64,000 nucleotides of DNA from assembly GCA_963745035.1 (NCBI GenBank), contig CAVUVW010000011.1:128001-192000 (forward strand), read 5' to 3'. Origin of the DNA: an uncultured delta proteobacterium (GTDB lineage: Bacteria; Desulfobacterota; Binatia; UBA9968). The translations under genes were made by a program, and so were the position numbers. The notes below the pieces were generated by a model. The model was not told the DNA's origin. It saw only the letters and a list, made by a program, of their open reading frames with translations, and ran no database searches. Shown here in pieces: positions 5,277 to 21,422 of this stretch. Position 1 is the stretch's first letter, and each line of letters opens with the position of its first letter.

Positions 5277-5351
5277 CAGCGCCTTGTTGCCCGACACCTA
5301 TGTCTCGCCGCTTCGCGCTCAGCACGGCGCGGCAAAACGCGAACGTTACGC
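5271..5351 (+). other. Integron attC site
   Basis: GCCTAAC (overlaps stop codon)...imperfect palindrome...GTTACGC. Confidence 0.7.
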
Positions 5352-5495: not shown

Positions 5496-5507
5496 GTTAG
5501 CCATCAG

Positions 5508-5575
5508 GATTGAACTGAATTCTCCATCAACGTAATCTCGCGTGGCATCACATTGAAGCGTCGTTCAGTTCAATC
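5508..5575 (+). repeat. Array repeat, full copy
   Basis: gattgaactgaattctccatcaacgtaatctcgcgtggcatcacattgaagcgtcgttcagttcaatc. Confidence 0.95.
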
Positions 5576-5731
5576 TCAGGCTAAATTTGATCTTGCCATT
5601 TGATGAATACTGTCGAAGGCATCGCCGCGCGGAACGTCTGATATTCAGTCAGCGTGCTTCTCAGTTCGATGTCCGCTCGCCCTCTCATAAACGGCTTGCT
5701 TGATCGCCGCAGGTAGTCAGGGGGCCACCCA

Positions 5732-6543
5732 TCAGAAGGTTGCATGCGTGTCCTGCCATCCGAGTCCGTTCCAAAACACTGTTTCGAGCAATCGCCTTAT
5801 TTTCCGACTTGGAAGATTGCGAAAGATCCCATTGTTCGGCCCTACCATGCGGTAATCCAAATGAATCCGCCGGTAATTCCATTTGACACTGTCAAGCGGT
5901 CGCCATTCGCCAGGGGCCTCCTCGCCGAACAGCCCGCTTGAGCCGCCTTCAAACCGATGGTCGACGAAAATGCCCTCTCTTGCCGGGTTGGGGCATCGTT
6001 GCTCAGTAATAGTGAGTTGTGGGACAATCTTGAATCTCTTGTATCCCAGCTGATCGAGTAGATGCAGTTGCGTGAACGTGTCCTTGATCGACGTCGCGCT
6101 TGCCTCCACCGAAATATACTTCGGCTTCTCCTCTACGCTGAGCAGACCTTCGAGGCATACGGAATCCATTCCCTCGATATCTACTTTCATGTAGTACGGC
6201 ACACCGAATTTTAGGATGACGTCCTTGATCGTAGTCGCCTCGACCTTAACCGGATGACTCTTGAATCCTCGCGCCTCGTTTCTTTTGACCCATTCGGGGT
6301 TTGCTGTCCCCCATATGCTGACTTGCTCGTTGACAAAAAAATCGATGGTTCCGACGGTATGACTGATCGCCTTGTTGATGATCTGTAATTGGCCAGAGCC
6401 GATCGCTGCCGAGAATTTGTGTACACACTCCTCGCAGAGTTGGGCATTCGCCTCGATTCCGACGACCCGAAATCCTTTTCTGAGATAGAACTCGTGTCTT
6501 CTCCTGTATGCATTCCAACGTCATAGATTAAGTCGCCTGGCAT
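5732..6543 (-). CDS. FkbM family methyltransferase (frameshifted)
   Basis: LIYDVGMHTGEDT at N-terminus; YYMKVDIEGMD..CL; PKYISVE. Confidence 0.8.
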
Positions 6544-6651
6544 CTCGTAATCTCCAGGGTTATGAATACGCGCCGATCCGTCTCTCGAAAGATCGTCATC
6601 GCTTCGGGCACAACGGCGCTTTTCGACTCAACGATGGGTCCGAAACCCGTC

Positions 6652-6798
6652 TGTGCTGGTTTGTGCCAGAACCAGAGCAGAACAAACACCTCCCATTGTC
6701 TAACACCCAGGAGGTGAACATTAAAATAGTTGGATTTTTTCGTTGATGTTCCGCTCTGGTTTGGCCCCGACTTGGCTCTTAATCAGCGGGTCCGGGGT
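6652..6798 (+). other. att-like scar: arm-type repeats plus tRNA-Lys(CTT) anticodon/variable-loop fragment
   Basis: tgtgctggt-t-tgtgccag (6652-6669); ttggctcttaatcagcgggtccggggt (6772-6798). Confidence 0.6.
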
Positions 6799-6812
6799 GT
6801 TCTGGATGCTAG

Positions 6813-6880
6813 GATTGAATTGAATTCTCCACCAACGCAATCTCGCGCGGCATCACATTGAAGCGTCGTTCAGTTCAATC
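6813..6880 (+). repeat. Array repeat, full copy
   Basis: taggattgaattgaattctccacc...gcgtcgttcagttcaatccta. Confidence 0.95.
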
Positions 6881-6960
6881 CTACGGGTCCGCGAGCACTT
6901 CTTATTTGACAAATCCCTTCGTTCGGCGTGATAAATAACGCTCGAAACTCTGGGTGTGCA

Positions 6961-7251
6961 ATGAAGAAAGCTCGTCTGTCATCAATCCTGATTGCGGTAC
7001 TGATGCTCGCTGTTGCCGTCATGGCCGTCATCACGGTTTGCGATGGAGCGAGAGAATCGTGTCCGCTTTTTCCCGGCCAGCCAGAGATTGCCCATTGGAA
7101 TATCCCCGATCCGACCAGGGCTACTGGATTGAAGGAAATCGATAAGTACAGGGATGTCGCACAGCAAATTCAGCAGCGTGTGCACTTGCTTTGTGCGTTC
7201 CCGATAGAAAAGCTGGGCCACTTGGCACCAGAACAGCGTGCAACCTCATAA
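6961..7251 (+). pseudogene. Chimera: ABC-SBP signal peptide fused to C-terminal half of an ArsC/LMWP arsenate reductase
   Basis: MKKARLSSILIAVLMLAVAVMA + VITVCDGARESCPLFPG..HWNIPDP. Confidence 0.65.
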
Positions 7252-7626
7252 CCGGGCTGCGAGTGCTGTTAATGGACCAGCGCCTTTGCTCATGCAGCAC
7301 GGGGGCTTTGAAAGCTCTTGTATCGCTACCGAGTCAAATAGCCGGTCCAGAAACAGCGGACATTGTTGCGGTGCTCTTCAGAATGTCTGGCGGCAGAAGC
7401 CTGTAATGCTCCGATAGGCGAAGCGCATGTTTTGGCAAATTCAAACGGTAACCCTGAAGTTCGAAACAAATGCCAAACAACTAAAGGCCAAACTCGCCTC
7501 CCTGTCGCCTCTCCCGCAAAGTCACGGGAAGGCGACAGGAAAGGGTTGAAAGGCTAGGACGTTTGGAACAGTCCGCACGTTTTTCTTTTTCTGCAAACGG
7601 CGCAAAATTCGGGTAGCAAATAAGCC

Positions 7627-10600
7627 ATGACTGCTACAGCTCCAATTATCACGCTCTCGCCGCGGGATTACGACGCGGTTTTGTTCGACCTCGACGGTGT
7701 ACTGACGAAAACGGCGACCGTGCATGCCGCGGCATGGAAAAAACTGTTCGATGGATATCTAAAGCAGCGCGCCCAAGACACCGGAGGACCCTTCGTCGCC
7801 TTCGACATCGATGCCGACTACCTGCGCTATGTCGACGGCAAACCGCGTTACGATGGCGTGGTGTCTTTTCTCCACTCGCGCGGAATTGATTTGCCGTTGG
7901 GTTCGGCCGGCGACGCGCCCGGCACGGGAACGGTACATGCTCTCGGCAAGCTAAAGGATCGATACTTCACGGAGAGTCTGGAGGAGCAAGGCGTCGAGAC
8001 TTATGAACCGACGATCTCTCTCGTGCGCACGCTGCGCGCGCAAGAGATCAAGACCGCGGTCGTCTCTTCGAGCAACAACTGCGCGGCAGTTCTGCAGGCC
8101 GCCGGCATCGCGCATCTTTTCGATACGCGGGTTGATGGCAGGGAGATCGCCCGCCTCGCGCTCAAAGGCAAGCCGGCGCCCGATGCTTTCCTCGAAGCGG
8201 CGCGGCGTCTGGCTGTCGAGCCGTCCCGCGTCGTCGTCGTGGAGGACGCGATCGCCGGCGTCGCTGCGGGACGTGCCGGCCGTTTCTGCTGTGTGATCGG
8301 TGTCGATCGAGGTGGGCATTCTAAGGCGCTGCGTGAGGCCGGTGCTAATGTCGTGGTAACGAGCTTGGCGCAGGTTAGGATCAGTCCAGAACCCGCCTCC
8401 GCCTGGACGCTAGTGTATGAAGGATACGAGCCAGCGCGGGAAAGAATCCGCGAAGCCCTATGCGCGCTAGGGAACGGCTATTTCGCTACTCGTGGAGCAG
8501 CGACCTGGGCGCGGGCGGATGAGATTCACTACCCCGGGACCTACCTCGCCTGCGGCTATAACCGAATGCGCACTGATATTGCGGGCCGGATTGTCGAAAA
8601 CGAAGATCTCGTCAATCTTCCCAATTGGCTCCCCCTCGAATTTCGTATCGGCGAGGAGGACTGGTTCGATCCGGCGACGGTCACGATCCGTCTTTATGAT
8701 CAGCGGCTAGATCTGCGACGTGGCATGCTGCTGCGAACGATCCGCTTCGAAGATCGCCAGGGGCGGCAGACTACGCTGAAGGAACGCCGTCTGGTGTCCA
8801 TGAGCGACATGCATGTGGCGGCGCTCGAGCTGAGTCTTTCTGCCGAGAATTGGTCGGCCAAGGTCACGGTGCGTGCATCAATCGACGGCCGGATTGTCAA
8901 TAGCGGCGCGCAGCTCTACCTCAAATTCAACAACAAACATCTCGAGTTGCTGGAGCGCCAGGTCCTCGACAGCGACGGCGTTTATATGCTCGTGCGCACC
9001 AGCCAGTCACATATTTACGTCGCCCAGGCGGCGCGAACTCAAGCGTTTGTCGACGGCAAAATCCGTGAGGTGCCGCGCCGTGTTATCGAAGAGCCGGAAT
9101 ACATCGGGCAAGAGATGGTGATCGACGTGCGGCAGGGCGAGACTTTGGCCCTCGAGAAGATCGCGTCTTTCTACACCTCGCGTGATCAAGCTATTTCGGA
9201 GTGCGGTTTGGCGGCGCGTAAGGCGATTGGCCGGGCGGGCCGCTTTGACGCGGTGATGGCCGAGCATGTTCTTTCCTGGAAGCACTTGTGGCGCCGCTTC
9301 GATGTGCATATTCAGCCGGCCGAACCGGGATTCAAACTGAATGTACTGATGCTGTTGCGGCTGAACATGTTTCATCTCTTGCAGGCCGTCTCGCCCAACT
9401 CGATCGGACTCGATATCGGCGTGCCGGCGCGCGGCTGGACCGGCGAGGCCTACGAGGGCCACATTTTTTGGGACGAGCTTTTTATTTTTCCGTTCCTAAA
9501 TTATCGCATGCCGGAAATCACCCGCTCGTTGCTATTGTACCGCTATCGCCGTTTGGGGGAGGCGCGTGCCGCAGCGAGAATGGCGGGGTTGCGGGGCGCG
9601 ATGTTTCCCTGGCAAAGCGGCAGCGACGGGCAGGAAGAGACGCAGGAGCTCAACTTCAACCCGCGCTCACAGCGCTGGGTGCCGGACAATTCTTACCTGC
9701 AGCGCCATGTCGGCAGCGCCATCGCTTACAACGCTTGGCAGTATTATCAAGTCACTCACGATGTCGAGTTTATGCAAGCCCATGGCGCCGAGCTGATTCT
9801 CGAAATCGCTCGCTTTTGGTCGAGTATCGCGAGTTTCAACGAGGAGAGCGGTCGGTACGAGATTAGCGGGGTTATGGGCCCGGACGAGTTCCACGAGGGA
9901 TACCCCGGCTCATCGTCGCCCGGCCTTAATAACAATGCCTTCACTAACCTCATGGCGGCTTGGGTGCTGTGCCGCGCGCTCGATGTGCTCGAACTCCTTC
10001 CCGACATACGCCGCGCCGAGCTGAGCGCCCGACTCGGGCTATCGCCTGACGAGATTGTGCGATGGGGCGAAGTGAGCCGCAAGATGGTCGTGCCCTTTCA
10101 CGGCGACGGCATCATCAGCCAGTTTACAGGGTATGAAAATCTCGCTGAGCTGAACTGGGCGGACTACCGCGCCCGCTACGGCAATATTCAGCGGCTCGAT
10201 TTGATTCTGGAAGCCGAGAACGACAGTGCGAACCGCTACAAATTATCGAAGCAAGCCGACGTGCTGATGTTGTTTTATCTGTTTTCCGCGCAGGAGCTGG
10301 GCGAGCTGTTCAGGCGTTTAGGTTATCCGTTCGACCCTGAGATGATTCATCGCAACGTTGCCTACTATGACGCGCGCTCGTCGCATGGTTCGACGCTCTC
10401 GCGCGTAGTCCATGCGTGGGTGTTGGCGCGTTCGGACAGGCCGCGCTCGATGACTTATTTCGCCGAGGCACTGCAGAGCGATGTCAGCGATATTCAGCAA
10501 GGGACTACCGCCGAAGGTGTTCATCTCGGCGCTATGGCGGGATCGGTAGATCTGGTGCAGCGCGTCTCGACAGGCATCGAAATTACCGGCGACGTTCTGC

Positions 10601-10869
10601 GACTCGATCCACAATTGCCCCAGGAAATGGAGCGGCTCGACATGCGCATTCGCTACCGCGGACATTCGCTCGATTTGCGGCTAACCCGCGATACCCTGAC
10701 AGTGCGCGGCCGCGAGCGCGGTGTCGCTGCGATCAAGCTGGGAATCAAAGACGAGGTATACGACTTTCAATGCGGCAGCACGCGCGTCTTCAAACTCACC
10801 CGCGAACAGGCTGAAAGCAATGCATCAGATAGGACGATCACCGCCAAGGGCCGAAGAGCCCGAAGCTAA
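7627..10869 (+). CDS. HAD beta-phosphoglucomutase-like domain fused to GH65 (trehalose/maltose phosphorylase-like)
   Basis: LFDLDGV, GKPAPD, VVEDA; LGNGYFATRG, YEGHIFWDE, GPDEFH, KQADV, HGSTLS. Confidence 0.92.
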   Translation: MTATAPIITLSPRDYDAVLFDLDGVLTKTATVHAAAWKKLFDGYLKQRAQDTGGPFVAFDIDADYLRYVDGKPRYDGVVSFLHSRGIDLPLGSAGDAPGTGTVHALGKLKDRYFTESLEEQGVETYEPTISLVRTLRAQEIKTAVVSSSNNCAAVLQAAGIAHLFDTRVDGREIARLALKGKPAPDAFLEAARRLAVEPSRVVVVEDAIAGVAAGRAGRFCCVIGVDRGGHSKALREAGANVVVTSLAQVRISPEPASAWTLVYEGYEPARERIREALCALGNGYFATRGAATWARADEIHYPGTYLACGYNRMRTDIAGRIVENEDLVNLPNWLPLEFRIGEEDWFDPATVTIRLYDQRLDLRRGMLLRTIRFEDRQGRQTTLKERRLVSMSDMHVAALELSLSAENWSAKVTVRASIDGRIVNSGAQLYLKFNNKHLELLERQVLDSDGVYMLVRTSQSHIYVAQAARTQAFVDGKIREVPRRVIEEPEYIGQEMVIDVRQGETLALEKIASFYTSRDQAISECGLAARKAIGRAGRFDAVMAEHVLSWKHLWRRFDVHIQPAEPGFKLNVLMLLRLNMFHLLQAVSPNSIGLDIGVPARGWTGEAYEGHIFWDELFIFPFLNYRMPEITRSLLLYRYRRLGEARAAARMAGLRGAMFPWQSGSDGQEETQELNFNPRSQRWVPDNSYLQRHVGSAIAYNAWQYYQVTHDVEFMQAHGAELILEIARFWSSIASFNEESGRYEISGVMGPDEFHEGYPGSSSPGLNNNAFTNLMAAWVLCRALDVLELLPDIRRAELSARLGLSPDEIVRWGEVSRKMVVPFHGDGIISQFTGYENLAELNWADYRARYGNIQRLDLILEAENDSANRYKLSKQADVLMLFYLFSAQELGELFRRLGYPFDPEMIHRNVAYYDARSSHGSTLSRVVHAWVLARSDRPRSMTYFAEALQSDVSDIQQGTTAEGVHLGAMAGSVDLVQRVSTGIEITGDVLRLDPQLPQEMERLDMRIRYRGHSLDLRLTRDTLTVRGRERGVAAIKLGIKDEVYDFQCGSTRVFKLTREQAESNASDRTITAKGRRARS

Positions 10870-11078
10870 ACCGTCGAGAGTCCTTGATGAACTTCGTGTG
10901 CTTCGCGATGAGATCCTATTAATGAATACAGGACGGAAAAATCTAATTGAAGTCAGGGTAAGCTGGTCGGGAGCGGACTGGCGGAAGAAGTTTGCTCTCG
11001 GCCTGCGAATCAGGAAGTCGCGGGATTTGGCGGCTTTGTGATCCCCATGGTGTCGCTCGCCGTGTCGATTGCTCGTGC

Positions 11079-11230
11079 TTGTCCGCCTTTTGTCCGTGTA
11101 CCAGAAACAACAAGCCCCAAGAACTGCCGTTGTAAGCAGCGCTCGGGGCTTGACTTTGTTGGGCTTTGACCGCTGCTTTAGGTTCTAGTCACGATCGATT
11201 TTCGAATGGCATTCAAGTGGTGACCGGGTC
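11079..11230 (+). other. att-like scar: arm-type repeats plus tRNA-Ala(GGC) fragment
   Basis: ttgtccg x2 (11079-11096); gaatggcattcaag-tggtgaccgg (11204-11230). Confidence 0.55.
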
Positions 11231-11307
11231 GGCCTAGCACGATCGAGCGGATAAAATCGTTATAGAGATTCTTGTAGCTCGCATCGTTGAATCCAGCATC
11301 GCGCCAG

Positions 11308-11334
11308 GATTGAACTGATTTCTCCATCAATTCA
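11308..11334 (+). repeat. Array repeat, left half only
   Basis: gccaggattgaactgatttctccatcaattca. Confidence 0.85.
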
Positions 11335-11719
11335 GGTGGAGCGCAGCGCTCGGTGCTTCCCCGGCCTCTCCAGACTGGGAGTCTGGCGCGGCGATATCTA
11401 TGGTGGCATGTCTGGAGGGAGAGATTTAGTCAGCGCTTTCGAGCGTGCAACCGTCCGGCGCGACCTTGAAGATTGAAGCATCGGGAATCGTCACGTAGCC
11501 GTCCAGCCGCTTGCAGTAGTACAGCTTGACGATCGTTTCGCTTGGTATCAGTTCGCCCTCCGGGTCAATGATTTCCCGAAGACAAAAATAAGCAAGCTGA
11601 AAAGAACGTCACCGAAGAAGAAGACAAGAAGAGCGCGCTTAATTGCAGGTGCCATTGTCACACGCCGAAACACAAGCACTAGCGGGTCTTCAGCTCTAAC
11701 TGTGCTTGATAAACGCGGA

Positions 11720-11932
11720 TCATCTGTCGTGGTCGATCCACTTCTTTCCGTAACGAATGCCCCAGGCTTCGGCTTCGGCTACCGAATCGAAGGTATCTTC
11801 CGGTTTCAAAGGTTGAAAAGTTTCGCGGCCCTCCTCACCCCAGGAGACCATGACGCTCGCAATCCATTTTTGGCTGTCTGGCGTCTGATGACCTACTGAT
11901 TCAATTCTACGGCTAGCGTACAGGCGTCTCAT
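11720..11932 (-). CDS. Small hypothetical protein
   Basis: EAEAWGIRYGKKWID motif shared with the 17590-17889 ORF; RBS gagg. Confidence 0.55.
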   Translation of the reverse strand: MRRLYASRRIESVGHQTPDSQKWIASVMVSWGEEGRETFQPLKPEDTFDSVAEAEAWGIRYGKKWIDHDR

Positions 11933-12187
11933 GGTTTCCTCGGGTCAAAAAATCCTTGGCTGGATATAAGTCCTGCCGTCCCAGCCGTTTTTCTTCCTAA
12001 ATTCCTGTAGGTACTGCTCTACCAAAAACTGCGCTTCCTGCTCCGAAATAATCCCATGCATCCGCGCAGACGCAATAGTTTTCCCCCAAATACGCGCTTC
12101 GAGTTCCGTCCGATTCACATGGCCTCCGAGTTTGAAAATCCAAAACGTCTACCATGTTCCATTCGGAAAGCCAACCGACAAACGTTC

Positions 12188-12502
12188 TCATGCTATCAGC
12201 GTATTGCTCGGGTCATCCGGCAAGTCAAGTTCGCCGACCTCACCTATCGGCTTGCCGATGTTCTTCTGAAGCACGGTATAAATTGTCCGGCAAACACTGG
12301 AGTCCCGGCACAACAGCCGGCCCATGTACGTCTCATCTTCAATTTGAGTTGTCAGGTAACAAATCGTGATCGGATTGACCCGAGAGAGGGCGACATTTGT
12401 CAGCGTGGCAGAATCATGTGGTACTTTTTTTTCGTGTGATCCCGACAGTGAGAGCCAATTCGGCGGCCAAGCGCTTATCCCAGGGTGTTCTCGTAGTTTC
12501 AT
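12188..12502 (-). CDS. Hypothetical protein
   Basis: 104-aa ORF with plausible composition (WPPNW...IGKPIGEVGELD). Confidence 0.5.
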   Translation of the reverse strand: MKLREHPGISAWPPNWLSLSGSHEKKVPHDSATLTNVALSRVNPITICYLTTQIEDETYMGRLLCRDSSVCRTIYTVLQKNIGKPIGEVGELDLPDDPSNTLIA

Positions 12503-12579
12503 GGCGCGCCGAATAAACAGAAATCACGCGTGGGTGTCAAGAGACCGCGGAAATTGTCAGAAAGCCGACAATAGGTAGC

Positions 12580-12798
12580 TGAAACGATTTGGCGGGAACC
12601 GGAGAGTTGTTGAGTGACTATCGCGAGAGTGTGGCCAAACATAGCGTCGGCCTCCATGCCGGTGGCATCGGCCATAATGTTTGCATAAACAGCCAAACCA
12701 GACATCGCGGTTAATTCCACTATTTCGGGCTGACCGAGGCCATGCGAGCGCACGCTTTCATAGTCTGCTTCAGATAAGCTCAGCACGCACATCAACAC
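12580..12798 (-). pseudogene. 3' fragment of a carboxymuconolactone decarboxylase/AhpD-like gene
   Basis: LSEADYESVRSHGL..EIVELTAMSGLAVYANIMADA. Confidence 0.55.
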
Positions 12799-13173
12799 GC
12801 ACCCCCGGGCTTGATTTGCTTGATTCGCCTGCGATAGAAGGCGCAGTTAGACCGCTTGCAGCGGTATCTGGAAAGGGGTTCCGCAGCAGTAACCACTTTG
12901 CAAGAGTGAGGAGGGTTCCGTCCGATGCAACACACCCCGAAGCTGAAGGAAAACCGACTTCAACGCTATTCCACAGAACGTCTCGTCATGGAACCGCATA
13001 GAGACAAACAGTTGATTCCAACTTGGTTGAAAACTTTCACATTCTTGGGAGCCGCCGGCGCCGCTTCTCTGATCGTGGCTGCGTCGCTTTTCACGCTTTC
13101 ACAACAGGATTTTCCACTGCTCCATGGATTCTTAAGTTGGTAACTCACCGCCGCCGCGGATCGTAACCAGGGA

Positions 13174-14175
13174 ATGCAGGCGCGTGCACATTTGTTCGCC
13201 CGGGGAAAACCTATGGATACGAAAACGGGAATGCTCATCCTGCTGATCGTCGGCCAATTGCTTGCTACTGACGTGTGGAATGTTCATTCGGCCGAAGAAG
13301 TCGTTGGACAATACTTTTTTCAATTCGGCATTGGTGAGGTTACTGGTGAGTTCTCAAAGGCAGAGCGGCGCTATACAATTTCGGGGAGGTATGCGGTCGG
13401 TCACGACTTCAACACTGAGCCACCGTTTAATCCCGCCAAACGGAAGCTGGAGGCCTCCTTCGACTGGGTCGCTGAGGGGCGATATAATCCTGCCACCAAC
13501 GCCACCAGCGAGAAATTGGATCTATTCAATACGAACACTCGCGCGTCTGCCGGGTCTCTTACATCAACAATGGTGTGCGACCGAGATCCATGGCTGGAGG
13601 CATCCGTCGGCCCGTGCCAATTTGTCGTTACCACTGCCAGTGGTAGCCCACCCGGGACATTCGTTTTAGATATCAGTCCAGTGGCCCCAAGCGTTCCGTT
13701 TTCGTCGGCGCTGACCACAACCGAACGTTGGCGGTTGAACCGTCAGTACGACATCTTCCTCGCGGCGCGCCAAAAACTCGAACCTTTACTGACGCCCACG
13801 TATGAATCGACCGCACCCAGTATCGTCGCGCCGGCTCAGAATGGCTACATGATTCACAGGAAGTCGAAATTTATTATCCAACCCGCTCCAAACTTCAGCG
13901 GCACCGAAATCCTCGTGGAGTTTACGCCGCCCGACGCACCCGCCGGCCAAGCTCCCGAGAAAGTTGTTTGGCAAATGTCAACAAGCATTCTTAGTCTGGG
14001 TGCCGATATTCCGTACGCGATCTTCGGAACACGGGAGGGGACCTGGGCAATGCGTGCCCGCATAAACGTGCCGACACCCGGCGCCTTTACCCGGGAAGTC
14101 CGATTTCAGTACCTTATGCAAAGTCCATTCGTGAACCTCCCGTCAGAGAGATCGGTTGAGCTGCCGGGTCGGTGA
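13174..14175 (+). CDS. Secreted hypothetical protein
   Basis: 333-aa ORF with hydrophobic leader after M at ~13213; no recognised domain. Confidence 0.6.
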   Translation: MQARAHLFARGKPMDTKTGMLILLIVGQLLATDVWNVHSAEEVVGQYFFQFGIGEVTGEFSKAERRYTISGRYAVGHDFNTEPPFNPAKRKLEASFDWVAEGRYNPATNATSEKLDLFNTNTRASAGSLTSTMVCDRDPWLEASVGPCQFVVTTASGSPPGTFVLDISPVAPSVPFSSALTTTERWRLNRQYDIFLAARQKLEPLLTPTYESTAPSIVAPAQNGYMIHRKSKFIIQPAPNFSGTEILVEFTPPDAPAGQAPEKVVWQMSTSILSLGADIPYAIFGTREGTWAMRARINVPTPGAFTREVRFQYLMQSPFVNLPSERSVELPGR

Positions 14176-14222
14176 GAAACTGATCGCCAAAAAGCGGCGT
14201 CGCGCCTTGCGTTATCCTTTTA

Positions 14223-14245
14223 ACTGAATTGAATTCTCCGCCGGT
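14223..14245 (+). repeat. Array repeat, degenerate left half
   Basis: actgaattgaattctccgccggt, resembles the 1886 left end. Confidence 0.5.
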
Positions 14246-14367
14246 ACACTAGCGTTCTCCAGCCAAAGCGATTTGACTGATGGACCCGTCACAGGAGAAG
14301 TCGACCGGCGTTTACTACGACAGCTCACTTAACAGGTGGTGTCGATACTACGCTCAAAGGACACATC

Positions 14368-14730
14368 GATGGAGAAGAGCGTCTGGGCGAGTGGCCAAGC
14401 GTATGAGCCCTACGTAGGTCGTTGGAGCCGACGGGCGGCTCGCGAGTTCGTCGGGTGGCTTGCGGTTCCGCCTGCTGCTCGGTGGCTTGATGTCGGATGC
14501 GGTACGGGAGCGCTGACTGAAACGATTCTGCGTTGCGCAAGTCCCTCCGAAGTTATGGTATCGCCCCTTCGGAGGGCTATCTTGGCCTCGCGCGCGAGCA
14601 GGTTCGAGATCCCAGAGTTCGCTTCGACGTCGGCGATGCTCGCCACCTTTTAGTTGAACCGGCGCGATGCGATGCTGTAGTGTCCGCACTCGTGCTCAAC
14701 TTCATTCCGGATCTTCCTGCGGGACTGGCG
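14368..14730 (+). pseudogene. Class I SAM methyltransferase, truncated and frameshifted
   Basis: AYEPYVGRWS..WLDVGCGTGAL; DAVVSALVLNFIPD then breaks. Confidence 0.75.
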
Positions 14731-14849
14731 GGCAGTCCGCGGCCGGGCATCCCAGTAGGGAGCAACGGTGAAGCATATTGCGGCCCAGCCAATCATTGCT
14801 GCGGACGCGGCAAATACGTTGCGCTGCTGAGTGACTCGGTTATTCCTGA

Positions 14850-14913
14850 GATTGAACTGATTTCTCCATCAAGCCAATCTTGCCAGATTAATGGTGCGTC
14901 GTTCAGTTCAATC
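14850..14913 (+). repeat. Array repeat, full copy
   Basis: gattgaactgatttctccatcaagcc...gcgtcgttcagttcaatc. Confidence 0.92.
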
Positions 14914-14989
14914 CTACGTCCAAATTAGCCTTTTCTCCCTCGATGAATCGGTTTTCCTTCTGCCGTAAATAACACTTTTCTCAGCTTCC

Positions 14990-16027
14990 GTGTCCGTGAT
15001 AAGTCTTGTCACGAACGAGGCGCGAAATGAAAAAACGAGTTGGTCATCAATCCTGGTTGCAGCCATGCTGCTCGCTGTTGCAGTCATAGCCGAGGCGCAG
15101 CAGCAGGCGAAGAAGGTACCTCGGATAGGGTATCTAGCATCGAGAGACCCGGCTACGGAGTCCACGCGGTCCGAGCCAGTTCGACTGGCTCTGCGGGAGC
15201 TTGGCTACATAGAAGGAAAGAACGTCGTCATCGACTACCGATATGCGGAGGGGAAGCGTGATCGCTACCCTGAGCTTCTGGCCGAACTGGTCCGTCTCAA
15301 GGTTGATGTCATCGTGGCAGCAGGAGGCGAGCCGACGGTCCGGGCGGCCATTAAAGCGACGAAGACGATTCCCATCGTAATGACAGGTGGTGGGGCCGAT
15401 CCTGTCGAGGCAGGCTATATCAAAAGCCTTGCCCGTCCCGGCGGCAACGTCACCGGCATTACGAACCTTGGCTTAGAGCTAGGCGGAAAACGGCTGGAGT
15501 TGCTCAAAGAAGCTCTTCCCAAGGTGGCCCGTGTCGCGGTTCTCTACGATCCGGCGGCAGGTTCAGACTTCCTACGCGAGGTGAATGAGGATCTCCCAAT
15601 CGCGGCACATGGGTTGGGTTTGGATATTCGGTCTTGGGAGGCACGAGCTGTGGGCGATTTCGAAAGGATATTCGCTGCGCTAAACAAGGAGCGCCCCGAT
15701 GGGCTCTATGTGACCGGGAGCCTGCTCTTTCATACTAACCGAAAACGGATTGTCGAGTTTGCGTTACAGAGCCGGTTACCGTCTGTATACAGTAGAAGAG
15801 AATATGTAGATGAAGGGGGGCTCATATACTATGGGGCGGACCTCGCGGACAGCTACCGGCGTGTCGCATATTACGTGGACAAAATTCTCAAAGGTACGAA
15901 GCCTGCGGACTTGCCTGTCGAACAACCTGCAAAGTTCGAGCTGGCGATCAATCTTAAAACCGCAAAGCAGATCGGTCTGACGATTCCACAAAAAGTGTTG
16001 TCGCGGGCGGATAAGGTGATCAAGTAA
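14990..16027 (+). CDS. ABC transporter substrate-binding protein (ABC_sub_bind type)
   Basis: PRIGYL, LRELGYIEGKN, SLARPGGNVTG, KPADLPVEQP.KFELAINLKTAKQIG, RADKVIK; true start probably ATG ~15028 with a frameshift. Confidence 0.92.
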   Translation: MSVISLVTNEARNEKTSWSSILVAAMLLAVAVIAEAQQQAKKVPRIGYLASRDPATESTRSEPVRLALRELGYIEGKNVVIDYRYAEGKRDRYPELLAELVRLKVDVIVAAGGEPTVRAAIKATKTIPIVMTGGGADPVEAGYIKSLARPGGNVTGITNLGLELGGKRLELLKEALPKVARVAVLYDPAAGSDFLREVNEDLPIAAHGLGLDIRSWEARAVGDFERIFAALNKERPDGLYVTGSLLFHTNRKRIVEFALQSRLPSVYSRREYVDEGGLIYYGADLADSYRRVAYYVDKILKGTKPADLPVEQPAKFELAINLKTAKQIGLTIPQKVLSRADKVIK

Positions 16028-16044
16028 CCACCCGGCGACGCTAG

Positions 16045-16104
16045 GATTGAACTGAATTCTCCATCTAATCAGTCTCGCCTTAGATCAACCTGAAGCGTCG
16101 TTCA
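16045..16104 (+). repeat. Array repeat, near-full copy (right IR decayed)
   Basis: ctaggattgaactgaattctccatc...tgaagcgtcgttca. Confidence 0.9.
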
Positions 16105-16227
16105 TGTTGGAGCCGCATTCGAAAAAGCGAAGATAGAGCGTACCCAAGGGCTTCTCGTAAATGCTCGATTCCGATCGGGTTAAAGCCCTCCAATAAAGCA
16201 TTTTCTTCCTTCCCAAATTTTTTACAC

Positions 16228-16260
16228 GATCAAACTGAAGCGTCGTTTAGTTGAATTCTA
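16228..16260 (+). repeat. Array repeat, right half only
   Basis: gatcaaactgaagcgtcgtttagttgaattcta. Confidence 0.75.
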
Positions 16261-16646
16261 GGCGCGCCAACCCTGCCGCCAAGCTGAAAGCGCCTCGCAA
16301 AAAACTGTTTCACCTCCGCTGTTTCTCAGAGAAACGGAGGTGACGGTGACCTCTGTCCGTACAAGAAAATTCATCGATCCGCCGTTGGAGGCCCACCGCC
16401 TCGGGCTACTCATTAAAGGGATGTGAGTAAATTTCCTACCGACTCTAACTCTGAGTGTCTGCTTATCCAAACATTGTGAAAGGTTTGTTCACTAAATTTC
16501 ACGCGGTTGTGCTGGCATATGGATTGCCAGACTAAAAAGGATGTGAATTCACCTACTCAGCCCTACGAAGCGCGACTTGTGTGTAGGGTCAGTCGTTTTT
16601 AACCGGGATGGCCTTAAAAAGAGAAATAAAACAAATAAAGTAGTTT

Positions 16647-17066
16647 ATGAAAAAAATCTTCTCGGCGCTCCTATTTTTACAACTCTTGGTGTTGGCATTG
16701 ATGGCGCCGAATCTGTTTGCAGATGAAAGACGGGAATTCATTTCGAAAACAATGAATCCGGAGGTTCAAAAGCTTTTGGAAAACTGCGGCAGAGAAATAA
16801 TTGGCGAGGAGCCATTTTCAAGCAAGAATAATAATATCATGAACTATATGATCGGCTTTTATGATACCGATCACGGTTTGCTTGTTACGCTTCAAGCATT
16901 ACAGCAACGATTAAATGAGCATGGACGCGCGATCCCGGATGTTTATTCTAGCGAACTTGTGGCGATTGTATTCGTTGATCGATCGCTCTTGTGGTATAAA
17001 TCTCAAACCGCTAAGAGCACCTTAAAAGCAAAAATGGCGCGGTTAATGCAAAACCGATCTATTTAA
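16647..17066 (+). CDS. Secreted hypothetical protein (AT-rich)
   Basis: MKKIFSALLFLQLLVLA signal peptide; low GC. Confidence 0.6.
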   Translation: MKKIFSALLFLQLLVLALMAPNLFADERREFISKTMNPEVQKLLENCGREIIGEEPFSSKNNNIMNYMIGFYDTDHGLLVTLQALQQRLNEHGRAIPDVYSSELVAIVFVDRSLLWYKSQTAKSTLKAKMARLMQNRSI

Positions 17067-17246
17067 GCAGGCACCCTGCTTTTTATTTTTCTTTGAGTCC
17101 CGCATCGTAACATACCTCGAACTCCTCTCAACTTAGACGCCCTCCGTGCCGTTATCATCGAGCGCCGAACACTTTGCGAGTGACCCCTCACCCGTTTGGG
17201 TAGATCTTAGGAACCAGTTTATTAAACAACCATGCGACGATGCCAG

Positions 17247-17294
17247 GATTGAACTGAATTCTCCATCAACGCAATCTCGCCTGAAACACATTGA
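17247..17294 (+). repeat. Array repeat, left half plus core
   Basis: gccaggattgaactgaattctccatcaacgcaatctcgc...cacattga. Confidence 0.88.
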
Positions 17295-17589
17295 CGTTCG
17301 CATGTGTCCTCAGTGTAAGTCGCCGCACGTGCCGAAAGACCAGAGGCGGGAGCGCTAAGATGCCATTTCGCGTTATGCGGCGATGGGCCTTATACATGCG
17401 ACATTTCCCGTTCTCGCGAATGGAAAACTTAGATGTTTAGAACGCGCAGCGAGAGAGAGGAGGCAGAAAATGTGTGGACTAGAAATCTTTACTGATTAGA
17501 GTGCGGCTATCCCATGGATGGTTGGTGGTTACTCAGTACGTTTGGTCGGGACTTGGAATATCTGCCAAACAGGCATCAGTCGCCCGTGG

Positions 17590-17889
17590 TTACTTGATCA
17601 CTCTATCCGAAGCGCCCATATCCAAAGTGTCCTCTCTCCCCGCCCGCGCCAGCACATTCGGCGGAATCGTCACCCGCGATGAACGTTCGGCGTCCGGGAC
17701 GAGTGACAGATCCGGTTTTCCATCATCGATCCATTTCTTTGCGAATCTAAGACCGTCCATTTCCGCTTCTTCTCGTAGACGAAACGTTCGATTAACAGTT
17801 AACTTACTAGTTATCCCTTTACCATCTTCGCTCCAAATTATTGTAAGGCATAGCTTCCACTGACGCGGGGCCAGTCGCGAGGAGGACAC
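17590..17889 (-). CDS. Small hypothetical protein fused to ABC-SBP C-terminal remnants
   Basis: EAEMDGLRFAKKWIDDGKP followed by TIPPNVLARA...DRVIK*. Confidence 0.5.
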   Translation of the reverse strand: MSSSRLAPRQWKLCLTIIWSEDGKGITSKLTVNRTFRLREEAEMDGLRFAKKWIDDGKPDLSLVPDAERSSRVTIPPNVLARAGREDTLDMGASDRVIK

Positions 17890-17959
17890 GAGGATCCTAT
17901 GACCTTTGTGAGTTGCGTTGATGAATTTTTCTCCTAGATGTTGGTGGGCGAGTTCCTAC

Positions 17960-18352
17960 TTAGGAAGCCAGCAAATGGGTCCGCAGGACATCCCGTAGCA
18001 GTGGCAATTGTAACGGCTTGTACAAGATCTCTGCAGCGCCGGCATTAAGCGCGCGGTCGGCACGTTCTTCAACGTTGAAGTCGGTGGTCCACCCGCTATT
18101 TAAGACCACCGGGATATTGCGAGTGGACATATTCCTCTTTAATTGCACCGTTACTTCATCTCCATTTAACCCGGGCAAACGTATGTCCATCATGATCAGA
18201 TCAGGACGAAGGCTGAAAGCCTTGTCGAGGCCCTCTGGACCCGTAGCCGCTTCGACAACTTCGTGGCCCAAACCATTGAAAAACCCTCGAAGCGATTCTC
18301 GAAACTTTTCGTTGCCATCGACGATCAATATTTTTTTAGCCGTGTTGTGCAT
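17960..18352 (-). CDS. Single-domain response regulator (CheY/DivK-like)
   Basis: KILIVD, PDLIMMDIRLPGLNG, LYKP. Confidence 0.88.
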   Translation of the reverse strand: MHNTAKKILIVDGNEKFRESLRGFFNGLGHEVVEAATGPEGLDKAFSLRPDLIMMDIRLPGLNGDEVTVQLKRNMSTRNIPVVLNSGWTTDFNVEERADRALNAGAAEILYKPLQLPLLRDVLRTHLLAS

Positions 18353-18525
18353 GGAAGAAGCCTAGCAGCACAAGATATGCCAGCGCTTCAAATGTCAGTA
18401 TTTTGGTATTTTGTCGCCTTTAGCGCCTATGCAGCGATGTTTGGCGCTGCGACTTGCTTGGAGAATGACTGTCACTTTGCCAAGATTCGCGGGCCGTGCC
18501 TGCTCAGCCTTGGCGTTAGCGCCAG

Positions 18526-18594
18526 GATTGAACTGCATTCTCCATCAACGCAATCTCGCGTGGCATCAACATTGAAGCGTCGTTCAGTTCAATC
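18526..18594 (+). repeat. Array repeat, full copy abutting an attC-like 3' end
   Basis: gctcagccttggcGTTAGCG-ccag-gattgaactgcattctcc...gttcagttcaatc. Confidence 0.95.
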
Positions 18595-19202
18595 TCAGGC
18601 TAAATCTGGTCCTCCCAGTCGACGAATATCTGTTGCCTTCGTATCGTAAATCCGAGTTTCGTAGCGATTCGAATTCAGCCAGATCTTCGAGGCTCATCGC
18701 CCAGGATAAACAAAGACTCTGCCGGGAAATCTCCCCTTGGGCTAAAACGTGGGATCAATACATCATCGCGCCGGATTATGATTATAATTTACTCGGTGGG
18801 TGCGCTGGGTGTAGAGTTCGTATATTGGTTGAATCTCTCTTTTAAGGGGAAACTTTATGGATAAAAATGCGCCTGGCCTTGATGTCGGAACTAAGTGCGG
18901 ACATTCGTGTACAAGACTAGATGGCCCCATTAAGAATGACTTTGGTTGTTGTATTTGTATGGGCGAGACGCAGTTGTGTACATCGTGCGAAAAGAGAAGA
19001 CTCTCGGAAGATCCCGTTGGGGAGAAGGACGAAAGTGTCAACACACCTGGAAGCCGAAAAGATTAAGGTTTAGGAACCGGCGTTGGATCGACGGCCTCGG
19101 CTAGAATAGCGCGAATCAACCGGATCTTTTGCCCGACAACTTTTTGAGATCGTAAGTTACGGTCTCGTGGCGCGGGCGGGTAAAGTGATGAAGTGACGCC
19201 AA

Positions 19203-19236
19203 GATTGAACTGTATTCTCCATCAATTCAATTTCAC
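19203..19236 (+). repeat. Array repeat, left half
   Basis: gccaagattgaactgtattctccatcaattcaat. Confidence 0.85.
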
Positions 19237-19321
19237 GTCGATGACCCTGGAGTGCTACGGTCCGTGCTGCCCGGCCCTTTTCCTGCGCGGGCGGACAGAG
19301 TGATAAAATAAGGAGCGCATT

Positions 19322-19984
19322 ATGATCGGTGCCAAGGCTCTGTTAGAAGGGATTCGGCAAGATTTGCAGCCCGTCACGGAACGGCTTCTGGGGCATCCTT
19401 ACGTGAAGGCTCTGGAGGAAGGGCAGATTGAGCGGGAGAAGCTCCGTCTTTTTGCCGGCGAGCAGTACAGCATCATAGCGAGTGATCTCAAAAGCGTCGC
19501 TTATTTGCTTAGCCGCTTCGGTAGCGCTCCGAGCCGTGATTTCTTTCTCGGAATCCTGCAGGGTGAAAGAGCTGCCTGGGATGGCTTGCTAACGTTCGTC
19601 AATGCCCTCGGCCTAAGCGAAGCTCAACTGAGCAAGCACGAGCCAGCGGCTGGCGCTCATGCCTACACCTGCTACATGGCGTGGCTTGCGCTCTATGCCT
19701 CTGACGCCGAGATTGCTGCTGCCTACCTGGTCAATTTTCCAGCGTGGGGTCAGAACTGTGGCCGCCTGAGCCGGATTCTGAAAGAGCGTTTCGGTATGGG
19801 CGAGAAGGAAGTCGCTTTTTTTGATCTCTTCGCCTCTCCTCCAACTACATTTGAAGCCGACGCTCTGAAAGTTATTCAGCAGGGACTCGATCGAGGCATC
19901 GAGCCGAGCCTGATCCAACGGGCGGCTCGGTTACTCCAGGCCTACGAGCTCATGTATTGGGATACCCTCTACGGGGCGTCTTAG
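19322..19984 (+). CDS. TenA/THI-4 (heme-oxygenase-like) family protein
   Basis: HPYVKALEEG, AHAYTCYMAWL, NFPAWG, YELMYWD. Confidence 0.8.
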   Translation: MIGAKALLEGIRQDLQPVTERLLGHPYVKALEEGQIEREKLRLFAGEQYSIIASDLKSVAYLLSRFGSAPSRDFFLGILQGERAAWDGLLTFVNALGLSEAQLSKHEPAAGAHAYTCYMAWLALYASDAEIAAAYLVNFPAWGQNCGRLSRILKERFGMGEKEVAFFDLFASPPTTFEADALKVIQQGLDRGIEPSLIQRAARLLQAYELMYWDTLYGAS

Positions 19985-20045
19985 CCGTGCTGGCAGGGCG
20001 GATAAAGTGATCGAGTGAGCGAAGAAAACCAAGCGGCAATGCTAG

Positions 20046-20113
20046 GATTGAACTGAATTCTCCATCAAACCAATCTTACGTCTCATCCAACTGAAGCGTC
20101 GTTCAGTTCAATC
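20046..20113 (+). repeat. Array repeat, full copy
   Basis: taggattgaactgaa...ttcagttcaatccta, perfect 15-bp IR. Confidence 0.95.
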
Positions 20114-20299
20114 CTACATGGCTGTTTTTGTGATGGTCTGGCCGAATAGGCCGCCGATTCGTTAGGCAGATAAGCTGCCGTGCCGGTCGGCTTTTTAGCG
20201 AAAAACTCTAACGTTGACAATCCAGGTGAGCTGATGGATATTCCACGCAATTTGAACTTTTATTGTCCAAGCTGTCGCCGAGATAAGCCGACCGGCATT

Positions 20300-20340
20300 T
20301 GTCGCCGCCTACGGCGGCGCGGCTCACTTAATAGTTAGAC
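20300..20340 (+). other. attC-like 3' half preceding the methyltransferase gene
   Basis: cgccgcctacggcggcg hairpin, ggctca...GTTAGAC. Confidence 0.5.
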
Positions 20341-20374
20341 CTCATTAACCATCGACACGTTTAGGGAGGCGACT

Positions 20375-21170
20375 ATGGAACCCAACCTGCATACGGATGC
20401 CAATAAGTACCAGGCCGGGATGGGAGGCTGGAGTAAAACTCTTGCTCCTCTATTCATCGAATTTATAGGAGGTATCAAAGAAGGGGATCGGGTGTTAGAT
20501 GTAGGCTGTGGTACGGGTTCACTCACAAACACCATTGCTGATACAACAAAAGCCGCAACAGTTATCGGCATCGACCCTTCAGTAGGCTACTTAGAATATG
20601 CCCGTACACACAATACACGTTCGCACGTTTCCTTTGAAATCGGGGATGCTCAGAAACTTTCCTATGACAATGGCTCTTTCGACTGCTGCGTATCTTCGTT
20701 GATGATTCAATTTGTCTCGGCTGCGGACGCGGCAGCAAGAGAAATGAGGCGCGTCACAAAGAACGCGCGGAACTGTTGCAACTTGTGTATGGGACAACAG
20801 TGGAGGCATGGAGTTAGCCGAAAGATTCTGGGATGCGGCCATTGCAATTGACCCAGAAGCCAAACGAACTGGGAATAGCCGTTATGGATCGCCAAGCGCG
20901 CTTTCAGATTTGTGGAGCGCCGCTGGTTTTGCGAATGTTGAAACAGGACCTCTGGTTATTCCTATGGAGTTTCCTTCCTTCGAGGATTTGTGGCGCATTC
21001 AGTCAGATGCGCAGGGACCGCCTAAACTTTATATCAGCAGTCTGTCTGAGGATCGCCGACAGTTATTGAAGGAGCGACTACGCGCGGACATTCTTGGTAA
21101 TCGCCCTCATGGATCGATTAGCCTTCGTGCAAAGGCTTGGGCAGTGCGTGGGATAGTGCCGGCAGGGTAG
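20375..21170 (+). CDS. Class I SAM methyltransferase (frameshift ~20760)
   Basis: YQAGMGGWS, VLDVGCGTGSL, GIDPS; C-terminus LRAKAWAVRG. Confidence 0.85.
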
Positions 21171-21294
21171 ATTTTCGACGGACTAGTTTGCGCAAATTGG
21201 AGTAGCTGTGATCCATCCATCCTAGTAAACGAAGCGAACGGATAATCTTCTTATCGCTTGGGCGTGGCCGCGTGTCGGTTTCGCATTGTGTGGT

Positions 21295-21351
21295 GTCTAA
21301 CTTTCCGCTTCAAGCCGCCGCATGACGCGCGGGCTGAGCGCGGCGTTAGCG
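21295..21351 (+). other. Integron attC site
   Basis: GTCTAAC-tttccgcttcaagcc...ggctgagcgcggc-GTTAGCG. Confidence 0.6.
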
Positions 21352-21355
21352 CCAG

Positions 21356-21422
21356 GATTGAACTGAATTCTCCATCAAACCAATCTTACGTCTCATCCAA
21401 CACAAGCGTCGTTCAGTTCAAT
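21356..21422 (+). repeat. Array repeat, full copy (rightmost)
   Basis: gattgaactgaattctccatcaaaccaatcttacgtctcatccaacacaagcgtcgttcagttcaat. Confidence 0.95.

Follow-up and report, generated by a model that had tools for sequence, protein, structure and literature searches.

The window is a 64,000-nt stretch of DNA from an uncultured member of the Binatia, positions C11:128001-192000 of a 7.4 Mb genome that is assembled in 28 contigs and is 92.6% complete (C-numbers denote contigs of this genome). Positions 559-21422 are occupied by an array of gene units, which are single genes and mostly co-oriented, punctuated by copies of a repeat that is here called H. H is a hairpin of about 70 bases (65-72 nt) made up of two inverted half-sites around a variable middle. 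Its behavior supports the proposal of an earlier note on this DNA that the repeats are recombination sites delimiting single-gene cargo units. The form of this idea preferred here, which we hold at even credence, is that H is a composite tyrosine-recombinase site of two heterospecific inverted half-sites, served by an Xer-type enzyme whose gene is nested in one of the copies.

The left arm of H, GATTGAACTGAATTCTCC, occurs 13 times in the window at up to 3 mismatches, where 0.06 copies are expected. The right arm, GCGTCGTTCAGTTCAAT, occurs 9 times, where 0.29 are expected. Every arm copy of the window lies on the + strand and is confined to 559-21422. Several are half-copies that the earlier note had overlooked, i.e., lone left arms at 1885, 11308, 14222, and 19203 and lone right arms at 2882 and 16240. 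Across the genome, 30 left arms are found at up to 2 mismatches, in small arrays on at least 10 contigs. The features of the array are as follows, with the evidence in parentheses.

559-623, +: complete H, first of the array, with a second-family core (TACTACTCAG...) (arm matches; covariance model, 63 bits)
878-1567, +: MgtC family module gene (Pfam PF02308, E=1.2e-37)
1885-1902, +: left half-site (arm and TTCTCC) of the repeat split around the recombinase gene (arm match)
1973-2875, +: broken gene for a Xer-family tyrosine recombinase (SAM-like and catalytic domains in Pfam)
2882-2898, +: right half-site, CCGTCG and arm TTCAGTTCAAT, 7 nt past the recombinase stop codon (arm match)
3124-3645, +: SnoaL/DUF4440-like gene (domain search)
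4086-4529 and 4702-5157, +: two glyoxalase-fold genes (domain search)
5271-5351, +: canonical-looking integron attC, GCCTAAC ... GTTACGC (heuristic scan; bottom-strand fold of -19.7 kcal/mol)
5508-5574, +: complete H, type-A core (covariance model, 93.8 bits)
5732-6543, -: FkbM-domain methyltransferase gene, split in the window (intact in a 97% identical C26 copy: 270 aa, PF05050, E=2.2e-12)
6813-6879, +: complete H, type-A core (arm matches; covariance model)
6928-10869, +: small open reading frame (ORF) and a 1080-aa beta-phosphoglucomutase/GH65 fusion, one module (NCBIfam)
11308-11325, +: left half-site with an insertion sequence (IS)-like element immediately 3' (arm match)
About 11326-14221: repeated IS-like element (copies on C20 (93%), C26, C12, C1, C13, and C7)
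14222-14239, +: degenerate left half-site, 3 mismatches (arm match)
14850-14912, +: complete H with a core of its own (arm matches)
14990-16027, +: solute-binding protein (SBP) module of a large paralogous family with many paralogues (NCBIfam TrpX-like SBP, 1.3e-33)
16045-16256, +: H with the right arm broken after GCGTCGTTCA (16045-16101), about 125 nt, and a second right half-site (16229-16256) (arm matches)
17247-17300, +: H with a type-A left part and a decayed right arm (sequence read)
17960-18352, -: response-regulator receiver gene (Pfam PF00072, 1.5e-18)
18526-18593, +: complete H, type-A core with one extra base (alignment; covariance model)
19203-19236, +: short form with the left half-site only, where the duplicated TenA unit begins (sequence read; covariance model)
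19322-19984, +: TENA/THI-4/PqqC-family gene (domain search)
20046-20112, +: complete H, type-B core (alignment; covariance model)
20126-20338, +: non-coding repeat of about 215 nt ('class 3') (10 further matches in the genome, 133-215 nt long)
20375-21170, +: class I S-adenosylmethionine (SAM) methyltransferase gene, in two frames (NCBIfam/domain search)
21297-21352, +: canonical-looking attC, GTCTAAC-TTTCC-GCTTCAAGCC...GGCTGAGC-GCGGC-GTTAGCG, which ends 3 nt before the last H
21356-21422, +: complete H, type-B core with 2 mismatches to copy 20046, last of the array (alignment; covariance model)

Structure and distribution of the repeat

Each half-site of H has a constant arm of 11-12 nt and a constant hexamer of its own, TTCTCC on the left and GCGTCG on the right. 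On the + strand, the left half-site reads arm ATTGAACTGAA, hexamer TTCTCC, variable arm, and the right half-site reads variable arm, hexamer GCGTCG, arm TTCAGTTCAAT. The variable, self-complementary middle between the two half-sites is what the earlier note called the core. The predicted single-strand fold is composed of a 12-bp stem, a 6x6 internal loop, and a variable stem-loop of about 10 bp, with the hexamers unpaired. The 12-bp arm pairing is GATTGAACTGAA/TTCAGTTCAATC, and up to 3 flanking pairs can lengthen the stem to 15 pairs.

Fifteen complete copies of H from five contigs were aligned over 78 columns. The structure named above pairs 88.2% of 381 cells, compared with 17-47% after a shift of the 3' partners by 1-3 columns, a flattering contrast because the structure was derived from the same 15 sequences. 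Single copies have fold z-scores of -2.7 to -5.2 on both strands, the exception being copy 559 with just -1.7 and -1.8. The internal loop has TTCTCC on one side and GCGTCG on the other (+ strand), and neither is less conserved than the arms.

From the 15 copies, a covariance model was made and run against the genome studied, the congeneric genome G018, other metagenome-assembled genomes (MAGs), and metagenome contigs. This search found 75 copies, of which 69 are distinct and 67 full-length. An exact CGACGC, complementary to GCGTCG, is present in 56 of the 67 full-length distinct copies, and an exact GGAGAA, complementary to TTCTCC, in 60; both counts lean high, since the model favors copies like its own source sequences. 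At least two sequence families can be told apart in the inner stem, and both keep its pairing. On the minus strand, 143 G.T cells are observed versus 43 A.C cells, summed over the ten inner pairs, with both figures inflated by kinship among the copies. More G.T than A.C on this strand implies that the strand opposite most genes folds better.

As a duplex, H is two inverted sites, each with an 11-nt arm, a 6-nt spacer, and an 11-nt arm, of which the outer arm is constant and the inner arm variable. Examples are ATCACATTGAA-GCGTCG-TTCAGTTCAAT and, on the other strand, ATTGCGTTGAT-GGAGAA-TTCAGTTCAAT. Inner arms differ between families, e.g., ATCACATTGAA and ATTTGTCCGTT, even beside the spacer. 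The 8 nt outside the arms have a mean complementarity of 3.46 within a repeat and 3.52 across a module, compared with 3.27 for random pairs (p=0.25 and 0.36). The flanks of H carry no direct repeats, and no target-site duplication was seen there. A search of positions 1-24000 against Rfam at E up to 1 returned nothing for H and one chance miRNA match only.

Short forms of 39 nt are also present, at C26:54627-54665, C14:1010149, C2:64952-64990, C6:4002-4040, C6:5720-5758, and 19198-19236 of the window. In the two whose letters were read (C26:54627 and C14:1010149), the left arm is fused directly to GCGTCG and the right arm. These forms could have arisen by slippage between the CTGAA that closes the left arm and the CTGAA that closes many cores.

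The distribution of H was examined in 31 genomes of the genus, a set that includes the unpublished genome G005, on which alone no conclusion depends. With up to 1 mismatch allowed, the genome studied has 28 left arms, G018 has 32, 17 others have 1-13, and 12 have none. This patchy distribution fits a mobile system. The exact two-arm pattern is found in 26 stretches among contigs of one genome per species, and 17 of these score strongly with the model, on one strand only. The strong matches come from MAGs titled 'uncultured delta proteobacterium' and one Candidatus Binatia MAG, and two more are on short contigs binned as Acidobacteria. The remaining weak, symmetric matches in unrelated phyla are taken as chance palindromes.

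Cores, modules, and the nested recombinase gene

The earlier note claimed that cores come in matched neighboring pairs that bracket single genes. Every copy was printed and compared, and the core letters quoted there are correct. Copies 20046 and 21356 share the core CATCAAACCAATCTTACGTCTCATCCAAC (type B), copies 5508 and 6813 share CAACG(T/C)AATCTCGCG(T/C)GGCATCACATTG (type A), and copies 559, 14850, and 16045 differ from both. The bracketed genes are as described there, i.e., the methyltransferase at 20375-21170, the FkbM gene on the minus strand, and the response regulator at 17960-18352, also on the minus strand. The assignment of 17247 and 18526 to type A holds for 18526, which has the same core with one extra base; 17247 has only the left part and a decayed right arm.

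Matched neighbors are not a rule. In a test on the whole genome, the 30 nt after each of 36 left arms were shuffled among sites 20,000 times. At least 80% core identity is reached by 3 of 21 adjacent pairs, compared with 2.0 expected (p=0.32), and mean core identity is 0.633 for adjacent pairs and 0.609 for all pairs (p=0.16). With complete cores only (n=15), 2 of 8 adjacent pairs match, compared with 1.68 expected (p=0.54). Core likeness is therefore unrelated to adjacency genome-wide, the very outcome that the earlier note had named as contradicting it. The type-A left half is the commonest core, at 11 of the 36 sites. Copy 5508 has 1 mismatch to C13:1120292 and 3 to its neighbor 6813, which is itself closest to C19:285113.

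A neighbor is the best match for only 2 of the 36 sites, and these are 20046 and 21356. This pair is unique in the genome, with 2 differences over 32 core positions and no likeness outside the repeat of about 70 nt. It is the only pair in the genome studied that still fits local site duplication. G018 (52 sites, 32 adjacent pairs) has no excess in mean identity (p=0.58), and 4 of its adjacent pairs reach 80%, compared with 0.84 expected (p=0.008). One of the four is identical, 3.3 kb apart, one is at 0.83, and the two at exactly 0.80 are the same core pair counted twice, on G018 contigs C41 and C5. A few cases thus resemble local duplication, of which 20046/21356 is the clearest. On the reading preferred here, neighboring cores would match mostly because one core type is common and occasionally because of such duplication.

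A Blast comparison of each unit of the array with the genome brought out two recent duplications. One is the TenA unit, 19203-20045, which has a 99.9% identical counterpart at C13:1123691-1124533. Identity starts at the left arm of the upstream repeat, where the preceding bases are diverged ends of binding-protein genes. It spans the gene and stops within the left arm of the downstream repeat, and the cores beyond are unrelated. The body of the unit is also present at one MAG locus (97%), where the 28 nt after the upstream left arm differ as well, and in G018 (88%). The downstream core differs at all 4 of the 4 places. The FkbM unit, 5600-6812, is 97% identical to C26:82253-83465. On its right side, likeness stops after the left arm and ATCAAC; on its left side, a type-A-like repeat stands at either copy, the two repeats being 89% identical and the one on C26 lacking the outer right arm.

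A canonical integron cassette is composed of a gene and its own attC, which predicts that the downstream site stays with the gene. The near-identical modules found here have different cores elsewhere, which implies that the core does not travel with the cargo. The breakpoints of the TenA and FkbM duplicates fit crossovers in left half-sites and, just as well, homologous recombination within the conserved arms, two cases being too few to separate the two.

One repeat of the array holds a gene. The tyrosine recombinase gene at 1973-2875 lies between the lone left half-site at 1885 and the right half-site at 2882, i.e., in the position of the core. Ordinary cargo would be expected between two complete repeats, and the recombinase gene stands where a core would be. 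Against the NCBIfam cut-offs, the protein scores 205/335 bits for XerC, 201/330 for XerD, 195/220 for XerA, and 67/265 for IntI, and its best relative of solved structure is E. coli XerD (1a0p). By these profile scores, it is a paralogue of the Xer group outside the named equivalogs and not an integron integrase.

The gene is broken in the window by a 4-nt deficit near 2164, an extra base near 2344, and an in-frame TGA at 2255-2257. Contigs from other public sequencing runs show 88-99% likeness over parts of it. They have four more letters after 2164 (one run) and lack the extra letter at 2344 (three runs, every contig that covers that place). As fragments aligned to 1880-2900, none of which spans the whole gene or covers both half-sites, these contigs bear on the two indels only, and they indicate that relatives are intact at 2164 and 2344. 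The breaks in the window are either real or errors of assembly; a 4-nt gap is atypical of homopolymer error.

Relatives of the recombinase were sought in soil metagenomes. Of 427 stretches that encode one, the best 80 (50-93% identical) were kept, and 48 loci were inspected, with the right half-site scored as a 17-mer at up to 3 mismatches. A right half-site is found 3' of the gene at 34 of the 47 loci with downstream sequence (31/34 at 77% identity or more), and a left half-site 5' of it at 21 of the 40 with enough upstream sequence. On one metagenome contig, L091, the order is SBP gene, SBP gene, left half-site, intact 301-aa recombinase gene, right half-site, flavodoxin-like gene, H, SBP gene, H, all co-oriented. 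The flavodoxin-like gene carries a canonical-looking attC directly before the complete repeat.

Integron sequences also occur near the repeats. The genome has one integron integrase (IntI), on C6, with 445 bits against a cut-off of 265. No H adjoins it, and the nearest H on its contig is 35 kb off. For canonical attC sites, regular-expression and folding heuristics were too strict or too noisy, and the sites reported here were judged by eye. A GTTA box lies 4-18 nt upstream of 11 of 33 left half-sites, compared with 2 in the control window, and 6 of the 11 have attC-type upstream boxes. Another 13 of the 33 follow the 3' end of a binding-protein paralogue, and 9 follow something else. In G018, the left half-sites divide into 8 GTTA, 19 binding-protein, and 23 other, of 50. 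Canonical-looking attC ends (GTTAGCG, GTTAGCC, etc.) are seen 3-5 nt before the left arm of H at 21297-21355, 5480-5507, and 18505-18525 of the window and at L091 3537-3605.

IntI passes its cut-off in 9 of the 31 genomes of the genus. Its presence is unrelated to the count of H, within the limits set by MAG incompleteness: G018 has 32 left arms and no IntI match (80% complete), and G005, G006, G015, and G041 have IntI and 1-2 arms. At the C6 locus (L001, G000:C6:40634-44536), a lexA-like gene lies directly upstream of intI on the same strand, and the 175-nt gap contains clustered GTTCAA/TTGAAC. The GTTCAA repeats were considered as attI evidence for the arm and were dropped, since this short repeat is found at dozens of places in the genome.

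Other repeated sequences are present in the array. The IS-like element at about 11326-14221 has ORFs of 127 aa and 333 aa with no Pfam family. Left arms on C17 and C13 are followed, about 27 nt on, by the same CTGGAGCGCCGCGCTCGG. The non-coding repeat of about 215 nt has copies at C14:613141, C10:18629, C26:80879, C17:1351, C13:1121622, C6:35749, C27:53166, C14:1048369, C14:1058055, and C22:2501, which are 70-90% alike and often lie 3' of a right half-site. In the congener G036, it lies about 20 nt past the 3' end of a split intI (L073 1281-1479).

Relics of the last codons of a binding-protein gene (GGGCGGATAAGGTGATCAAGTAA-like) stand behind unrelated genes at 16002-16027, 19171-19196, 19286-19311, and 19993-20018, e.g., after the TenA stop codon and just ahead of the TenA start codon. 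Such relics suggest that cargo genes may have replaced binding-protein genes within existing modules. Three array genes are frame-broken (5732-6543, 20375-21170, and 1973-2875), with relatives elsewhere intact. Either the array is a fossil that has truly decayed, or a long-read assembly introduced indel errors. With a broken recombinase, many truncated sites, and several split cargo genes, the array looks largely fossil in the genome studied.

The proposed site and its alternatives

The enzyme serving H is probably the dedicated Xer-type recombinase encoded inside one copy, to judge from its position and family. The array would be a chain in which gene modules, with constant arms facing the gene, alternate with tiny core modules, with variable arms facing in, and the recombinase gene would occupy the core module of one repeat. 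Like half-sites of different repeats, with the same hexamer in the same orientation, would recombine, and a module together with a core would be excised or inserted. After two such events, one module would have been exchanged for another, with the cores unmoved. The unlike hexamers, which sit where the overlap region of a tyrosine recombinase would lie, would block left-with-right events, also within one repeat. The core would then be linked to neither neighboring gene.

The proposed half-site arrangement would account for the constant hexamers, the independence of the core from both neighbors, and the TenA unit that runs from left arm to left arm. A folded single strand is the substrate in attC recombination and at the CTX phage site. 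In H, the inner arms are variable yet always complementary, and this, with the G.T bias, suggests a folded single strand as substrate here as well. In that case, the strand that folds would decide which half-site is cut. The sequences themselves establish the structure of H with its conservation and pairing, the nested gene and its family, the ends of the duplicated modules, and the missing effect of adjacency; we infer that the recombinase acts on H, as well as its point of cutting and a duplex or folded substrate.

Several observations weigh against this proposal. The recombinase is broken in the genome studied, which holds about 30 copies of H. Searches of the 30 other genomes of the genus (best match 44%, housekeeping Xer genes) and of a sample of 300 genomes of the class did not recover it; G018, the genome richest in repeats, is among those without it and is only 80% complete. 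The idea that the recombinase marks an autonomous element shared by these relatives gained no support from the searches. At 12 of 23 re-examined loci without a detected left half-site, another conserved sequence lies upstream of the leader of the gene. The variable arms are unconserved even beside the hexamers, unlike Xer sites, in which both arms are recognized. The match of the constant arm to the XerD-binding site TTATGTTAAAT of PMC13141974 (Table 1), at 8 of 11 positions, counts for the proposal but was noticed after the fact. The proposal leaves the GTTA/attC sequences next to about a third of the left half-sites (11/33) unaccounted for. Both well-resolved breakpoint pairs could equally be homologous recombination within conserved arms. 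No recombination product, either circle or empty site, was seen; an empty site was sought in the closest genome, G018, with which only an ssuA-like gene is common and no synteny was found.

Three other explanations have to be weighed against the composite site. An unlikely one is that H is a lineage-specific form of the integron attC and the array a cluster of attC sites lacking an integrase (CALIN), with the IntI of the genome acting on the folded bottom strand. The genome does encode an integron integrase, and the array has the look expected of such a cluster: single-gene, mostly co-oriented units, hairpins with AAC...GTT ends and a variable middle that fold better on the strand opposite the genes, and canonical-looking attC sites within the array (5271-5351, 21297-21352) and directly before other copies. 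The architecture of the hairpin differs, however, since H has a 12-bp stem and a 6x6 loop where attC has a 7-bp box with a 5-nt spacer, and its copies share no bulged bases. Inheritance differs as well, with a core that does not follow the upstream gene in any of the four TenA contexts. The integrase itself has no adjoining H and no relation to H counts within the genus, and the recombinase gene nested in the site is a different one. Very improbable is the model of the earlier note, in which the core is a specificity or overlap region and each cargo either came with like sites on both sides or gave rise to a second site when it integrated. The adjacent 20046/21356 pair and the one identical G018 pair are what it predicts. 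The genome-wide tests speak against it, as do type-A copies that are closer to relatives on other contigs than to their neighbors. The core is also the least conserved part of H, keeping only its self-complementarity while arms and hexamers are invariant, and the same cargo is followed by different cores elsewhere (TenA in 4/4 places, FkbM in both copies).

It is also doubtful, to much the same degree as the attC explanation, that H is a passive palindrome. Copies like repetitive extragenic palindromes (REPs) or miniature inverted-repeat transposable elements (MITEs) would have spread with the binding-protein family and been shuffled by homologous recombination, slippage, and gene conversion, the recombinase being mere cargo. 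The 13 of 33 left half-sites that follow a binding-protein 3' end agree with this, and the breakpoints of the duplicate units fall in the longest conserved stretches, as homologous recombination gives. Many copies are decayed or truncated, and the recombinase gene, broken here, did not turn up in the other genomes searched. A palindrome needs no conserved loop, however, and in H the unpaired hexamers vary as little as the paired arms. The variable stem remains paired in different sequence families, and G.T exceeds A.C on one strand. The recombinase gene lies inside a split repeat at 21-34 independent loci, and not between complete repeats as cargo would. The copies number about 30 and lie in arrays instead of being dispersed by the hundreds, with no target-site duplication at their flanks.

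Comparison with known systems

REP doublets (REPINs) and MITEs differ from H, which has about 30 clustered left arms on at least 10 contigs and flanks that are not direct repeats; genes for REP-associated tyrosine transposases (RAYTs) lay outside the search. CGTC-tagged REPs, as the available text of PMC3733652 describes them, were considered on account of the hexamer GCGTCG. They were set aside, as the hexamer of H lies inside the hairpin loop and not at the foot of a short palindrome.

The site of the CTX phage, CTX-phi attP(+), is formed by two inverted dif-like half-sites that anneal in single-stranded DNA with a mismatched center. It is used by the host XerCD, once per genome. H is also composed of two inverted dif-like half-sites with a mismatched central region on folding. 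The difference is that H is present as dozens of sites that delimit chromosomal gene modules and not as one phage attachment site.

The consensus of attC has an inverse core RYYYAAC and a core GTTRRRY, which are complementary, and a 7-bp R box, a spacer of about 5 nt, an L box, and extrahelical bases on the bottom strand. The ends of H, ATTGAAC and GTTCAAT, are complementary and contain AAC and GTT, and each departs from the consensus at one purine/pyrimidine position. Integron cassette arrays and CALINs are treated in Cury et al. 2016 (PMC4889954) and Ghaly et al. 2021 (PMC8352920), both accessible in part. H arrays resemble them in their mostly promoterless-looking single-gene units, several arrays per genome away from the integrase, and true-looking attC sites within the arrays. 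The site itself shares a structure conserved above sequence, an AAC/GTT outer box, an unpaired central spacer, and better folding of the opposite strand. The box, spacer, and bulge geometry of attC is not found in H, with no conserved bulge in 15 or 69 copies, and the site does not belong to the cassette of the upstream gene (TenA, 4/4; FkbM, 2 copies). The nested recombinase is not IntI by score (67 against 265 bits) and lacks the size of IntI, and the H array has no attI or Pc platform.

The closest resemblance in architecture is to the dif modules of Acinetobacter plasmids. According to the accessible part of PMC13141974, pdif (XerC/XerD) sites have an 11-6-11 arrangement, neighboring sites are inverted, and C and D modules alternate. 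Recombination is expected only between like spacers, and a single module can be replaced via two successive events while its neighbors stay. Further dif-module papers, likewise available in part, are PMC6449649, PMC7399989, and PMC10132070, the last of which describes IS1202-family elements that target pdif sites. H has the same 11-6-11 arms and spacer when compared with Table 1 of PMC13141974. Modules with inverted sites alternate in both systems, here as gene modules with constant arms in and as cores or the recombinase gene with variable arms in. The sites are targets of insertion sequences as well, and the IS-like element after the left half-site at 11308 recalls the IS1202 family as described in the accessible part of PMC10132070.

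H arrays also depart from dif modules. Every second module (C) has shrunk to a self-complementary core of about 30 nt, so that two sites make one hairpin, and only two constant spacers are used. Relative to the sites tabulated in PMC13141974, H lacks the conserved XerC-type inner arm, and its outer arm is the one with the 8/11 match to TTATGTTAAAT. The H system encodes a dedicated Xer paralogue, whereas dif modules rely on the host XerC and XerD. Its arrays are chromosomal and belong to uncultured soil Binatia. A canonical dif was not found in the 92.6% complete genome studied. No published description of such arrays was found in the literature, with subscription journals and supplements beyond the search. 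The system is thus apparently undescribed, of the Xer/dif-module kind with integron-like features.

Binatia are a widespread uncultured class of soil bacteria, and the H system is tied to the large expansion that orphan solute-binding proteins have undergone in this class. It might account for the growth and turnover of the binding-protein arrays. The candidate enzyme, 301 residues long, can be synthesized from its metagenome sequence, which makes its binding, strand choice, and crossover points directly testable.

Bacteria are known to file single genes into exchangeable arrays in two ways, by integrons and, as recognized more recently, by the dif modules of Acinetobacter. Tentatively, and short of an even chance, H arrays may be a third gene-cassette system beside them, with a self-encoded Xer recombinase nested in its own hairpin site and two heterospecific half-sites per site. 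Modules with unlike inverted half-sites could not pop out alone but could trade places between arrays through two crossovers, which would amount to recombinase-mediated cassette exchange in nature. The system would also take in true integron cassettes, with attC ends that abut the next hairpin; hairpins that abut canonical attC sites hint at traffic between two cassette systems. Where sites originate and how lone modules move are questions for integrons and dif modules alike, and the H system offers simple, strongly conserved sites with two spacer types in which to ask them.

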